Positions 37,293 through 41,805 are shown, numbered from the stretch's first letter. The stretch is 64,000 nucleotides of DNA from an uncultured Eggerthella sp. (GCA_900540345.1 UQFK01000001.1:215386-279385); one strand, 5' to 3'. The notes: a model not told the origin generated them from the letters alone. Program-made: numbers and translations.

Positions 37293-37730
37293 TTTTTTCC
37301 TTTCTACGGGATGAGCCGAATTGCCCAACCCTTATTTCCTGTGTGGACTCCATCACCGCCAAGATCTCTTTTGGGAGAAAGAAACCGACGATTCCGAGTT
37401 TCCACGCGTCCGGGTGTATCCATACAGAGTCAGACGCAAATGAAAAGTATACGTGTGTTAGGCGGGAGTTTCAAGGAAATCTTTTTTGTGAACGATCGCT
37501 ACGGTGAGTGGCAGCATGATAGACGACTGCCGTCTTAAGGGACATTCACTACATGAAGTAACCGTCCCCGTTTGATGCTCGAGGATGTATTCTTCACTCA
37601 AGGGTGTTCGCCGCCTTGAGCTGAATTAAGCATGGCTGACACCTTTTAAACGGCTAACTGGCGATTTTTGACAATTTTTTTCGTTTTTATCATTGCGAGT
37701 GTCTTCTGAACTGGGAATTCAGGATCTTTC

Positions 37731-37736
37731 ATTATA
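37731..37736 (-). promoter_or_regulatory. Candidate -10 hexamer (TATAAT) for a re-initiated rplB-to-adk transcript; no convincing -35 element.
   Basis: A minus-strand TATAAT sits inside an AT-rich tract about 440 nt upstream of rplB. Confidence 0.25.
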
Positions 37737-37865
37737 GGTCGACAATTTTTTCCGTTTTTTGACCGTTACTGTCTCAAAAAACTGCGTAAAAAAGAAATTT
37801 TTTGCCCAAAATCAGCTTTTGACCGAACTAGCGCTGCTCTTCAAAAAGGTGATCGTCCCGCAATA

Positions 37866-38147
37866 TCAATCCCAAGGATTACGCTCGAAGAGAGGGCGCA
37901 TATCAGGAACATCAGCATAGGGATGATAACCATCATCGTCTTCGGTGATATCGCGAAAACATGGAGTATTCGCCGTGCTAGCGGCACGCTTTCCTATAGT
38001 CGCATTCGTATCATTCGCAGGGACGGTACAATCATTAGCATCATACGTGTCTGTCACCCGAGAAGGCAACGGCTTCGTGACCGACTTGAGCGTGTAGTTC
38101 TTCTTCGCTGGTCTCTCCCGATCGGAGCCCATCATCTTTCCTTCCAT
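37866..38147 (-). CDS. Hypothetical small protein (93 aa); may not be coding.
   Basis: The ORF lies 83 nt downstream of the methyltransferase gene on the same strand. No recognisable motif. Confidence 0.3.
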   Translation of the reverse strand: MEGKMMGSDRERPAKKNYTLKSVTKPLPSRVTDTYDANDCTVPANDTNATIGKRAASTANTPCFRDITEDDDGYHPYADVPDMRPLFERNPWD

Positions 38148-38230
38148 ACGTGTTTTCGCGCTTGTAGGCAGTCAACTTCGGTATTGGTTATTTGCAGTCA
38201 ACTGCGTCGTTGATTGTTGACTCCCCTCTT

Positions 38231-39010
38231 CTAAGGGTGTTCGTTCGCACGCTCGCCGAGCTTGATCGCCTTCATGCGTAGGCGTACATAATCGGCATAC
38301 CAGACATTATCGACAAAGAGCTCCGCACGCGTCGAATCGACCGCTTCGCGAATGATCTCTTCGCGAAGCGTGTCTTCCATGTCTACAAATGCGCTCTGCT
38401 GGAAGGTGCGTATCCAGTTTGCAAGGCCATCATCTCCTAAAAGTGGCGTAAAGCGATCGAAAAGCGTAGCAAACACTACCTTGAAACCAGCTGATTCAAG
38501 CATCGAGGCGTACTCACCAATAGTTGGGAAATACTGCGGAATACGATAACCAAGACCACGCTTAGCAAATGCATCTCTAAGCGCGCTATGAATAAGGTGC
38601 GCGTTGCCGAAGCCTCCACATTCGAAGACGAACTGGCCAGAAGGCATAAGCGCACGAGCAACTGACGCAAGCAATGCGGGCTGGTCCTTCTTTCCAATCC
38701 AATGAAGAACCGCATTCGAAAAGACTGCCTCAACCGGCTCGTCAAGCGCGAAATCGATCGCATTTGCCTGCACGAAGGTGAGGTCGGGATAAGCAGCCTT
38801 AGCTCCTGCGATCATCTCAGCCGAATCGTCAAGTCCAAGCGCGCGGTATCCACGATCTTCGAGCGCTTTAGTGAGCGCACCGTTACCATAACCAAGATCA
38901 AGCACGCGAGCACCTGCCTTAACATCGAGAAGGCCGAGGACCGCTTCACCATATCCATGAACGAACGAGAAATTATTCTCGTAATGCTGTTCATCCCATG
39001 TGATGTTCAT
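38231..39010 (-). CDS. Class I SAM-dependent methyltransferase (Tam-like).
   Basis: VLDLGYGNGALT motif I and a ~255-aa Tam-like layout. Confidence 0.75.
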   Translation of the reverse strand: MNITWDEQHYENNFSFVHGYGEAVLGLLDVKAGARVLDLGYGNGALTKALEDRGYRALGLDDSAEMIAGAKAAYPDLTFVQANAIDFALDEPVEAVFSNAVLHWIGKKDQPALLASVARALMPSGQFVFECGGFGNAHLIHSALRDAFAKRGLGYRIPQYFPTIGEYASMLESAGFKVVFATLFDRFTPLLGDDGLANWIRTFQQSAFVDMEDTLREEIIREAVDSTRAELFVDNVWYADYVRLRMKAIKLGERANEHP

Positions 39011-39184
39011 AAGAGATCTCCTTTCGCACTCTCGAGCAGCTTTGCTTTCAAATTTGTCGATCGGATCATACGATCAGTGTGTTTTGAACGATAGCAGAAT
39101 AATGATGACAAGTAGACCACCTTGTCTTAACGCGTAGATTTTTTTGCTACTCTAAAGGATGCAGGGCCACAACTTGAGGGGGAT

Positions 39185-40132: not shown

Positions 40133-40206
40133 ACGCAGACTGTCTTTTGAGTGAATCTGGCGCGTGCCTATCGAATTGATTCATGCTTGTTTGCTGGATG
40201 GTCCGC

Positions 40207-41178
40207 TCAAGCCTGCGTAATGCAGTAATCCGTTTCGCGATGTTCGCGCAATACACCCATCATCTCACGTGTGAGAGAGTGGTCGTTATCAGTGAGCAGT
40301 TGGTCGCGATCGACCCATTCAGCAAAAGAGAGCTCATGCTCATCGAGCACGATATCCGAAGAGCCATCGAGCTCGCAAAAGAATCCAAGGAGAAGAGAGC
40401 TGGAATCTGGCCAGGGCTGACTTTTGTAGTAGCGCAAGTTCTTCACGCGCAAGCCGACCTCTTCCATTACCTCGCGATGCACGGTTTGTTCGACCGTCTC
40501 CCCCATCTCGCAATAGCCTGCTACCAGGGCGTAATTCGCATAAGGACGACCTGCATAACGCGTGGCGAGCACCTTGCCATCGGAGCGCGTGATGCCCACG
40601 ATAACCGCTGGGAAGACCTTCGGAAAGATCATGAGTCCACAATCGGGGCAACGCATCATCCGCTCAATCTTATCATGCTTGGTCTTTGCGCCACAGCGAC
40701 CGCAGTATTGCGACGACTCGTACCAATTCCAGTATTCGTGAGCGACCATGAGCGCAAAGCGGACTACTTTTGGCTGATAGTCAACCATTTTTTGAAGAGA
40801 AATGAATTCCCAACCAGGCTGACTTTCAATGCGATCGACCGCATCTTGAGAAAGATCGGCCATGAAGTATCGTTCGTTGTCAACCGTGAATAGATACACG
40901 TAAGGTTTTAAGCGCTCTGCGAGCAATCCCTCTTCGTCTTCGGAAGTAAGGAGTTTCTCCGAGTGCTCGTCATTTTGAGGGCAGGCATCATGGGATCCAG
41001 CGCGACGGTTCGTGTGTGAGCTAGGACTGAAATCCGCAAACTTTGGTGCACGCATGACACCATTCTGCACGAATACGAGTACAGTCTTACCTCGATATAC
41101 AACAAGATTGTCTTCAAGCCGCGCCTCAAGAAATGAAAACTCATTATCGTATGCAGCGGGCGCAATATCGTGCAGCAT
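40207..41178 (-). CDS. nudC: NAD+ diphosphatase NudC (zinc-ribbon NUDIX hydrolase).
   Basis: CGRCG...CPDCG zinc ribbon followed by a Nudix box (GYCEMGETVEQTVHREVMEEVGL). Confidence 0.85.
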   Translation of the reverse strand: MLHDIAPAAYDNEFSFLEARLEDNLVVYRGKTVLVFVQNGVMRAPKFADFSPSSHTNRRAGSHDACPQNDEHSEKLLTSEDEEGLLAERLKPYVYLFTVDNERYFMADLSQDAVDRIESQPGWEFISLQKMVDYQPKVVRFALMVAHEYWNWYESSQYCGRCGAKTKHDKIERMMRCPDCGLMIFPKVFPAVIVGITRSDGKVLATRYAGRPYANYALVAGYCEMGETVEQTVHREVMEEVGLRVKNLRYYKSQPWPDSSSLLLGFFCELDGSSDIVLDEHELSFAEWVDRDQLLTDNDHSLTREMMGVLREHRETDYCITQA

Positions 41179-41435
41179 GAGCCACTTCCAATCCAGTAAA
41201 TCTATCGAGCGCTTGATTCATAAGCATGCAGCTCAATCATGCTCACATTATATGACGCGATACAGCTTTTGACGATGCCGCGCTGGGATGAGTGTGTAAG
41301 CTTTGCTTGTTTTGTCCAAATCACGAGTTTCAAATCACAACGCGCATTTTATTACGCTCGTTTCACTGCTCTCAGATCCATAACACATGCTCTAAGGGCA
41401 GCGGTTAGCTGATGCATTCATATATGCAAGGTGTT

Positions 41436-41636
41436 CTTTTGCAGCAGAAGGAGCCAAAACTGCAAGAGATTTGCGCTTGTATGCACGAAATCAAGCCTAA
41501 AATCAAATAATTGAGCATCAAGACTTCACTCGCACTATCAAAGTAAGCAAAACCCCAGGTCGGTTTTTTATATAACATCTCTTATGTACATACAAGCGTA
41601 AATTCGCTGCATTTTTTTGCGGTTTTGCTGCATTTC
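41436..41636. mobile_element. MITE-like repeat element, copy B.
   Basis: Left end CTTTTGCAGCAGAAGGAGCC...AACTGCAAGAGATTTGCGCTTGTATGCACG. Right end ATGTACATACAAGCGTAAATTCGCTGCATTTTTTTGCGGTTTTGCTGCA. Confidence 0.55.
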
Positions 41637-41690
41637 AGGTTCATAACCGCCCCTTCCCTGTAAAACACCCTATACGCCATAAACGTTCAC

Positions 41691-41730
41691 GAAAAGAAAA
41701 CCCCTTGCCGATCAGATTCGACAAGGGGTT
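41691..41730 (-). terminator. Intrinsic terminator immediately downstream of rplW.
   Basis: On the minus strand, CCCCTTG-TCGAATCTGATCGG-CAAGGGG is followed by TTTTCTTTTC. Confidence 0.7.
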
Positions 41731-41805
41731 TGATTCTGGTATGAACTGCTCGAGTAGTGAACTTAGTTGCTACGTTCGATCACTGAGCGCGATTACCATA
41801 CGCGA

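Follow-up and report, generated by a model that had tools for sequence, protein, structure and literature searches.

The eleven genes from rpsJ to rpsQ make up one of the most conserved gene orders in bacteria, and this series is often taken as a fixed operon in annotation, in expression modelling and in the use of gene-order markers. In most bacteria, tuf lies between fusA and rpsJ. We analysed a window of 64,000 nucleotides (nt) from an uncultured Eggerthella sp. (GCA_900540345.1 UQFK01000001.1:215386-279385), to the whole of which all coordinates below refer, and which carries the same eleven genes as the canonical Escherichia coli-type S10 operon, in the same relative order and with spc-type genes next. 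The eleven genes are, however, not contiguous in the window: the series is cut after rplW by a predicted terminator and 4.5 kb of other genes, its first gene, rpsJ, is leaderless and joined to the str unit, and tuf is not found between fusA and rpsJ. Judged by comparison with related loci, the S10 series underwent an ancient fission that is common to the whole family, at a regulatory boundary that is common to the whole class. We propose, with a probability of about 0.78, that the rplW|rplB junction in Coriobacteriia is an operon boundary rather than the interior of an operon, and that the rplB unit has a separate predicted promoter and leader.

Only Gammaproteobacteria use the S10 leader for feedback by ribosomal protein L4 (PMC3616713), and the absence of an L4 leader in the window is therefore expected. 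The first-pass annotation of this DNA had assumed L4 autoregulation across the operon, but neither a leader nor an Rfam match was found at rpsJ. Genes inserted between the translation operons (rpoBC-str-S10-spc-alpha) have been described in Gammaproteobacteria and Bacilli, where insertions at the borders were followed by full disconnection in many descendants, a course read as relaxed selection for synteny (Brandis 2019, PMC6735719; Brandis 2021, PMC8046335). The Eggerthellaceae show the same pattern of a few unrelated genes at a border between transcription units and later disconnection, with lineage-specific genes at the junction in this family and adjacency of rplW and rplB in other Coriobacteriia. 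In contrast to the described cases, the border lies inside a canonical single operon and has its own conserved promoter and leader.

A candidate L2 leader, rated '?', has been reported upstream of rplB-rpsS-rplV-rpsC in Alphaproteobacteria, in a survey whose sole leader listed for Coriobacteria is that of L31 (Eckert and Weinberg 2020, PMC7247131). Like the element described below, it is a conserved structured element directly 5' of rplB, which implies separate regulation of an rplB-headed unit in another lineage too. The two elements nevertheless match in neither sequence nor structure, differ in lineage and architecture, and only that of Coriobacteriia includes a box shared with other promoters. 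A literature search of limited scope found no report of the Eggerthellaceae split, leader or box, which is weak evidence of novelty.

Results

Layout of the divided S10 series

Genes were named by homology, using Pfam profiles and NCBIfam equivalog cut-offs. The two halves of the series and the signal that closes the first of them are as follows.

43725-45842, minus strand: fusA
43373-43681, minus strand: rpsJ
42739-43362, minus strand: rplC
42090-42716, minus strand: rplD
41806-42090, minus strand: rplW, encoding L23 (PF00276, E = 6.6e-35), final gene of the rpsL-rpsG-fusA-rpsJ-rplC-rplD-rplW unit
41688-41731, minus strand: predicted intrinsic terminator (hairpin site 41731-41698), with a 14-bp stem holding 7 G-C pairs and the T-rich tail TCTTTTCGTG
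36462-37292, minus strand: rplB (Ribosomal_L2_N and Ribosomal_L2_C)

On the minus strand, the order is fusA, rpsJ, rplC, rplD, rplW, the terminator, nudC, a methyltransferase gene, a small open reading frame (ORF) and rplB, with atpG on the plus strand between nudC and the methyltransferase gene. The gap between rplW and rplB amounts to 4513 nt and holds the terminator and four other genes. The start of rplB is placed at the ATG at 37292, favoured over an upstream TTG at 37328 by homology and by the ribosome-binding site, and the genes after rplB are listed as far as secY on contig L081, which is identical to the window. The gene coordinates first assigned, with rpsJ-rplC-rplD-rplW ending at 41806 and rplB starting at 37292, all hold, and the split of about 4.5 kb that they delimit is physically real.

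Upstream, rpsJ begins 43 nt past the stop codon of fusA, which joins the front half of the S10 series to the str unit. The tuf gene of the window (10669-12184, minus strand) lies outside the fusA-rpsJ interval; it comes after three tRNA genes and is followed by tRNA-Trp, secE, nusG and rplK.

The first-pass annotation had placed a strong terminator after rplW, and a G+C-rich hairpin followed by a U-tract is indeed found there, where termination is predicted. Each Eggerthellaceae locus with an rplW gene has a hairpin and T-run after it, and a G+C-rich hairpin also lies 3' of rplW in families that keep rplB adjacent. Its occurrence in split and unsplit families alike suggests that the junction was a regulatory boundary before it opened.

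The junction is open throughout the Eggerthellaceae

Two samples were compared with the window, namely 80 loci around the L2 gene from species-level genomes and 80 metagenome loci found via the leader motif, which are hence all box-bearing by construction. The exact AtpG protein of the window is encoded on nine contigs, and five independent metagenome assemblies, with contigs of up to 83 kb, contain rplW-nudC-atpG-methyltransferase-ORF-rplB or the portion of it that fits the contig. The layout is identical on a 476-kb contig of an isolate, Anaerotardibacter muris (Eggerthellaceae), whose AtpG and L2 are 81% and 99% identical to those of the window. The four gap genes stand there in the same order, and the DNA of their coding parts is 69-86% identical, which indicates that they diverged along with the genome. 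Two stretches, 41179-41805 (the position of the terminator excepted) and the AT-rich 37476-37865, are absent from A. muris, and similarity returns at 90% exactly from 37475, the first base of the -35 hexamer of the rplB promoter described below.

In other phyla, 15-84 nt separate rplW from rplB, and in a basal Coriobacteriia metagenome-assembled genome (MAG; L006), as in Collinsella, Olsenella and Atopobiaceae, the distance is 150-190 nt. Among Eggerthellaceae of the first sample, it reaches 1.8 kb (L002), 6.8 kb (L004) and 8.9 kb (L005), and in L007 and L008 rplW does not occur within the 5.9-10 kb upstream of rplB. In the second sample, about 25 loci have at least 3 kb upstream of rplB; rplW was located in six of them, at 1.8, 3.5, 5.1, 7.3, 7.3 and 9.0 kb, and was not found within 3-12 kb upstream of rplB in the remaining ones. 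Contiguity of rplW and rplB in related genomes, a check proposed at the outset, was thus found in 0 of about 30 Eggerthellaceae loci.

The content of the gap varies from lineage to lineage. It is a transporter gene in L002, whereas L004 has an ABC transporter, trigger factor and a kinase-like gene, and the immediate upstream neighbours of rplB elsewhere encode a nucleotidyltransferase, a major facilitator superfamily transporter, a flavoprotein reductase, GMP synthase, a radical SAM protein, a glycosyltransferase or Vsr. That the arrangement might prove to be an ancient lineage-specific organisation with conserved genes had been foreseen, and this is largely what emerges: the break point is common to the whole family, although the gene set of the window is shared only within an Anaerotardibacter-level clade. 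The gap is, as far as these loci can date it, an old family-wide feature of Eggerthellaceae and no recent insertion. In Collinsella, Olsenella and Atopobiaceae (L009-L039) the cluster is instead broken between rpsJ and rplC, by 0.4 to more than 8 kb.

A conserved promoter is predicted immediately upstream of rplB

The elements found between the small ORF and the rplB start codon, and conserved among relatives, are listed below.

37446-37474, minus strand: predicted rplB promoter (-35 TTGAAA at 37474-37469, 17-nt spacer, -10 TATACT at 37451-37446)
37337-37440, minus strand: structured 5' leader of rplB (covariance model R1, 91.4 bits, single match in the window)
37402-37423, minus strand: 22-nt box within the leader, ATGGATACACCCGGACGCGTGG

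A promoter scan of the window found the rplB site unprompted, with 10 of 12 positions matched. The pattern TTGnnn-17-TATAAT, or a variant one step removed, is present in 33 of 34 distinct Eggerthellaceae leaders, the spacer being 18 nt in two, and the -10 element ends exactly 22 nt ahead of the box in 28 leaders of the family. Hexamers 17 ± 1 nt apart at a conserved position are those of a sigma-70-type promoter, for which a start is predicted about 7 nt past the -10 element, near 37439-37440, giving a leader of about 147 nt. The initial view was that the genes downstream of the gap must rely on a new promoter or on read-through, and a promoter of their own is supported by the conserved candidate at 37474-37446. 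The same site displaces two other proposals, a start of transcription at 37700-37740 and a leader of about 570 bp, since the AT-rich stretch 37476-37865 counted in that leader lies upstream of the promoter. A TATAAT at 37736-37731 was considered as the rplB promoter and set aside: a usable -35 is lacking, A. muris has no counterpart of the surrounding stretch, and the site would be auxiliary at best. By analogy with rpsL, a second promoter was also sought downstream of the box at rplB, and no acceptable -35/-10 pair was found.

The rplB leader folds into a conserved RNA structure

In the proposed fold, a first helix (P1) would pair 37437-37431, in the UUUGCGUCUG with which the predicted transcript opens, with 37412-37406, whose CGGACGC lies in the box. 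A long irregular hairpin follows (P2-P3, 37405-37343), which runs from GUGG to CCAC, has a conserved internal loop and ends in the apical loop CUCCCA (37377-37372), and a third, short hairpin stands directly ahead of the ribosome-binding site. The apical loop is CCUCC-like in 27 of 33 variants, and 31 of the 33 give the same long hairpin when folded singly by minimum free energy.

Covariation supports this structure. RNAalifold, applied to a MAFFT alignment that was not fitted to the structure, gave 7 of 15 pairs changed on both sides, with up to 17 sequences at one pair; in helices 2 and 3, changes on both sides occur at 6 of 8 pairs. Over the 33 sequences, 94.9% of the cells assigned to helices are paired as against 84.2% in shuffles, and 57 cells are doubly changed as against 18.9. 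The covariation score is 0.358 versus 0.164 for shuffled data; 0 of 500 shuffles attained these three values, and slid partners give at most 0.117.

In all Eggerthellaceae, the leader is found after the predicted promoter and before the start of rplB, and in all Coriobacteriia it immediately precedes rplB. Furthermore, model R1, built from Eggerthellaceae, matches 5' of rplB in Atopobiaceae, Olsenella, Collinsella and L006 (E values of 6e-5 to 0.1) and retrieved nothing convincing in about 20 loci of other phyla. The element has two of the marks of an autoregulatory ribosomal-protein leader, namely a location in the 5' untranslated region and a structure backed by covariation. Rfam 15 gave no match at E values up to 10 in 37200-38250, and at gathering score none near the locus, either in the window or in eight related loci.

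Two further possibilities for the leader were considered. Within the box, AUG GAU ACA CCC GGA CGC GUG (MDTPGRV) opens a frame of 39 codons, and the AUG is AUA in L008, in L009 and in the rpsL copy of the window. A coding role is rejected because the AUG is lost and because the changes between families are non-synonymous (TPGR vs TRGT). Mimicry of rRNA was assessed by Smith-Waterman alignment of six leaders with E. coli 16S, 23S and 5S rRNA, which scored no better than shuffles except for one Olsenella leader against 5S rRNA (z = 4.4, 3 of 1000 shuffles). A likeness by eye of the leader to 5S helix III/loop C and to 23S H66 was not confirmed by the statistics.

Apparent leader structures occur in two other translation units as well. 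In Collinsella, Olsenella and Atopobiaceae (L009-L039), a second conserved and apparently structured leader, GUGGUCCGCUGGGG...CCCAUGACCACCGAGGGU, occurs about 100-300 nt 5' of rplC. The predicted rpsL transcript of the window opens with a hairpin, GCGUCUC-loop-GAGGCGC (46840-46870, minus strand), which has equivalents in L086, L195, L002, L171 and L212; its stem shows compensatory changes between species, and its 5' strand matches that of P1 in the rplB leader (UUYGCGUCU).

A 22-nt box is shared by the rplB, rpsL and tRNA-tuf units

The box consensus, AT(G/A)GA(T/C)ACACCCGGNNGCGTGG, has three copies in the window as against 0.00 expected. In addition to the copy in the rplB leader, these are as follows.

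46871-46924, minus strand: rpsL promoter region (box at 46924-46903, -35 TTGACA at 46899-46894, -10 TAAAGT at 46876-46871)
12296-12317, minus strand: third box copy, with three mismatches, 6 nt upstream of TTGACA-17-TATTAT, the predicted promoter of tRNA-Tyr/Thr/Met-tuf

At rplB, the box is found in all 34 distinct Eggerthellaceae leaders, in all 34 at a fixed position and orientation, and upstream of rplB in all Coriobacteriia loci, with its last four bases (GUGG) forming the base of the covarying hairpin. About 40 loci of other phyla gave a single, chance-like match with 6 substitutions (L068). At rpsL, the box stands 3 nt upstream of the -35 element of TTGACA-17-TAAAGT, a box-CGT-TTGACA layout that all 12 Coriobacteriia loci with an rpsL gene share and that no locus of another phylum shows. 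The tRNA-tuf layout recurs in Raoultibacter timonensis, in a Gordonibacter MAG and on a contig whose EF-Tu is named Eggerthella sp. CAG:368 by NCBI. In Collinsella, Olsenella and Atopobiaceae, a box also lies upstream of rplC, inverted in two Atopobiaceae loci (L010, L039). Its presence at the rplB, rpsL and tRNA-tuf units suggests that they share a control.

In E. coli, the thrU-tyrU-glyT-thrT-tufB operon carries an upstream activating sequence bound by FIS. The tRNA-tuf unit of the window resembles this operon in joining several tRNA genes and tuf in one transcription unit and in having a conserved element shortly before the -35, but the Coriobacteriia element differs in being a GC-rich 22-mer, specific to the class and common to the rpsL and rplB units. 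A link of the box to the codons for EF-G 'IDTPGHV' was examined and dropped: a loose pattern also hit fusA in 11 loci of other phyla, fusA of the window matches at 15 of 22 positions, and we take the likeness to be coincidental and loose patterns to be prone to false hits from it.

Genes between rplW and rplB

40207-41178, minus strand: nudC, NAD+ diphosphatase (PF00293 NUDIX and PF09297 Zn_ribbon_NUD; NF001299, 171.6 bits vs a cut-off of 158)
39185-40132, plus strand: atpG, stand-alone F1 gamma subunit (PF00231, E = 8e-84, full profile)
38231-39010, minus strand: class I S-adenosylmethionine (SAM)-dependent methyltransferase (Methyltransf_11/25/23)
37866-38147, minus strand: small ORF of 93 codons, whose true start may lie further in

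The first assignment of nudC stands, as its score against NF001299 indicates. A promoter-like site, TCGTCA-17-TATAAT, lies ahead of the gene at 41275-41247, and nudC adjoins rplW in A. muris as well as in L100 and L102. The orphan atpG-like gene on the opposite strand is confirmed as encoding a full-length gamma subunit (TIGR01146, 271 bits vs a cut-off of 194, profile positions 1-286 of 286). It stands alone between convergent and divergent neighbours, with no other atp gene nearby and hence outside an atpA-atpD operon context. Its homologs of at least 50% identity (L086, L089-L092) occupy three genomic contexts, none of them beside other atp genes, whereas those of at most 47% identity sit in atpBEFHAGDC operons (L087).

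The methyltransferase, also kept in A. muris, had been called Tam-like. It reaches only 55.7 and 52.5 bits against the Tam cut-offs of 320 and 297 and falls below the equivalog cut-off for BioC, so that the label does not survive; what the protein matches is no more specific than the class I SAM methyltransferase fold. The small ORF, flagged as possible by the first-pass annotation, matches no family in Pfam or NCBIfam. The 30 residues at its C-terminus, FRDITEDDDGYHPYADVPDxRPxFExxPW, are kept in a 56-residue ORF at the same place in A. muris, and because of this conservation it probably encodes a real small protein.

Repeat element and AT-rich stretch

41440-41632, no strand assigned: inverted-repeat unit resembling a miniature inverted-repeat transposable element (MITE), with 47-nt arms 99 nt apart
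37476-37865, minus strand: AT-rich non-coding stretch upstream of the rplB promoter, with no counterpart in A. muris or other loci

The description of the first of these as MITE-like is apt. It is a short non-coding unit with terminal inverted repeats, of which the window has a second copy (49816-49989) and a partial one (58807-58858); the arms of the family are 37-47 nt long, end in ATTTGCGCTTGTATGCAC and are separated by 99-100 nt. The copy after rplW has no match in the A. muris locus (L086).

The AT-rich stretch contains three copies of TTTTGAC/GTCAAAA, clustered in 37666-37823, and two 19-nt direct repeats 71 nt apart. It had been described as rich in TTTTGAC, which is true of this cluster but does not extend to the window, where the motif occurs 8 times vs 10.5 expected, that is, without enrichment. 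The 11-mer GTCAAAAGCTG of this stretch is repeated at 41263-41273, in the -35 region of the predicted nudC promoter, a match that may reflect a shared operator or chance. Elsewhere in the window, a flavin mononucleotide (FMN) riboswitch is found at 21718-21846 on the minus strand (RF00050, 118 bits).

Discussion

The loci themselves show the rplW|rplB break, the terminators and a promoter, box and RNA structure that are conserved, and an operon boundary at this junction accounts for these features as follows. A first unit, rpsL-rpsG-fusA-rpsJ-rplC-rplD-rplW, would extend from the rpsL promoter to the terminator at 41731-41698. A second, made of rplB and about 20 following genes (S10-distal and spc-type), would be transcribed from TTGAAA-17-TATACT at 37474-37446, which we infer to be the main source of rplB transcripts. 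Its transcript would open with the leader of about 147 nt, consisting of the box-bearing 5' hairpin, the long hairpin with the CCUCC-like loop and the third small hairpin. Since the leader also precedes rplB in groups that keep it next to rplW (Collinsella, Olsenella and Atopobiaceae), the boundary would be older than the physical split. The halves would have been separable in Eggerthellaceae because they were already transcribed separately, and would have come apart there with different genes in each lineage.

The leader is likely to be a regulatory RNA, which probably controls the translation of rplB or the stability of its mRNA. Its CCUCC-like loop resembles an anti-Shine-Dalgarno sequence and would mask the ribosome-binding site; this is the simplest model because the loop is complementary to the AAAGGA/GGAGG ribosome-binding sites, and translational feedback by a ribosomal protein, which may stabilise the masked state, would be the most likely mechanism. 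As the box also lies just upstream of the -35 element at rpsL and tRNA-tuf, it probably couples the separated units to one regulator. A wider proposal, tentative and put at somewhat less than even odds, is that Coriobacteriia rebuilt the str-S10-spc series into independent units under a factor that reads the box, written AUGGAUAC(R)CCCGGNNNCGUGG in that reading (tRNA-tuf, rpsL and rplB, with rplC in Coriobacteriales), together with a class-wide ribosomal-protein feedback leader on the rplB unit, with the anti-Shine-Dalgarno-like loop, that would be new to the databases.

Several points weigh against the boundary with a regulatory leader. Promoter, start site and terminator efficiency are all predicted. 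Furthermore, nudC, the methyltransferase gene and the small ORF share the strand of rplB, and no terminator is predicted between the small ORF and rplB, so that some read-through into rplB is possible. In the leader, P1 is nearly invariant, for which reason covariation neither supports nor refutes this helix, and the lack of significant similarity to E. coli 16S, 23S and 5S rRNA means that no ligand can be named. Finally, the box precedes the -35 element at rpsL and tRNA-tuf, whereas at rplB it falls within the transcript, and this variable position, along with the inverted copies, fits a DNA site better than an RNA site.

This last point is the core of an explanation that we regard as serious, if on balance doubtful, in which the box is the operator of a class-specific transcription factor, which controls the promoters of translation-machinery genes. 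At rpsL and tRNA-tuf it would activate from a site at about -38 to -60, and at rplB its site at about +17 to +38 would serve as operator or roadblock, while the RNA hairpins would only stabilise the mRNA or tune translation and no ribosomal protein would exert feedback. In 12 of 12 Coriobacteriia loci at rpsL, and in 4 of 4 at tRNA-tuf, the box directly adjoins the -35 TTGACA; its position relative to the promoter changes among operons, as does its orientation 5' of rplC in L010 and L039, and no compensatory changes occur within the box itself. On the other hand, its GUGG is the base of a covarying hairpin, box and hairpin are kept as one unit throughout the class, no candidate regulator can be named, and the fixed position and orientation at rplB (34 of 34) are also explained by a role in RNA. 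The possible read-through has in turn been considered as the main source of rplB expression, by leakage at the rplW terminator and transcription through nudC, the methyltransferase gene and the small ORF, the 'promoter' then being a conserved sequence with another role. The common strand of these genes and the lack of a terminator-like site between 37866 and 37475 are in keeping with it, but the strong predicted terminator after rplW, the convergent transcription of atpG inside the gap and the retention of the promoter in 33 of 34 leaders while upstream genes vary and often lie on the opposite strand (GMP synthase, FAD reductase, glycosyltransferase) make it improbable.

The physical gap itself was first ascribed to a recent insertion, and a mobile or horizontally acquired segment of about 4.5 kb splitting an intact S10 operon, with an improvised promoter or read-through for the rplB genes, would fit the MITE-like element (41440-41632), the species-only AT-rich stretch (37476-37865), the dips in G+C content to 0.40-0.45 at both edges of the gap and the unusual context of atpG. 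Yet the coding parts of the gap have a G+C content of 0.47-0.56, like the flanks, no transposase, integrase or target duplication was seen, and the four genes are shared in order with A. muris at 69-86% DNA identity. Moreover, the junction is open, with other genes, in every Eggerthellaceae locus examined, and the promoter is conserved across the family and the leader across the class, so that little likelihood is left to a recent event. A misjoin in the assembly, named at the outset as what would undo the observation, could draw on the MAG contigs L001 and L003, which end less than 2 kb upstream of rplB and indicate that the region can assemble poorly; it is excluded for practical purposes by the identical layout in the five independent assemblies and on the 476-kb contig of the isolate.

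An operon boundary at rplW|rplB thus remains the reading that we favour, and it bears on how this family is annotated and understood. The genes between rplW and rplB in Eggerthellaceae are normal residents and no sign of misassembly or foreign DNA. Two candidates are supplied that can be put to the test, a structured rplB leader and a box common to three translation operons. An entire family of Actinomycetota from the gut, with Eggerthella, Gordonibacter, Raoultibacter and Adlercreutzia-like organisms among its members, has its S10 series cut at one fixed point, each half with its own predicted signals, and offers a natural case in which to ask how ribosomal proteins stay balanced without co-transcription.

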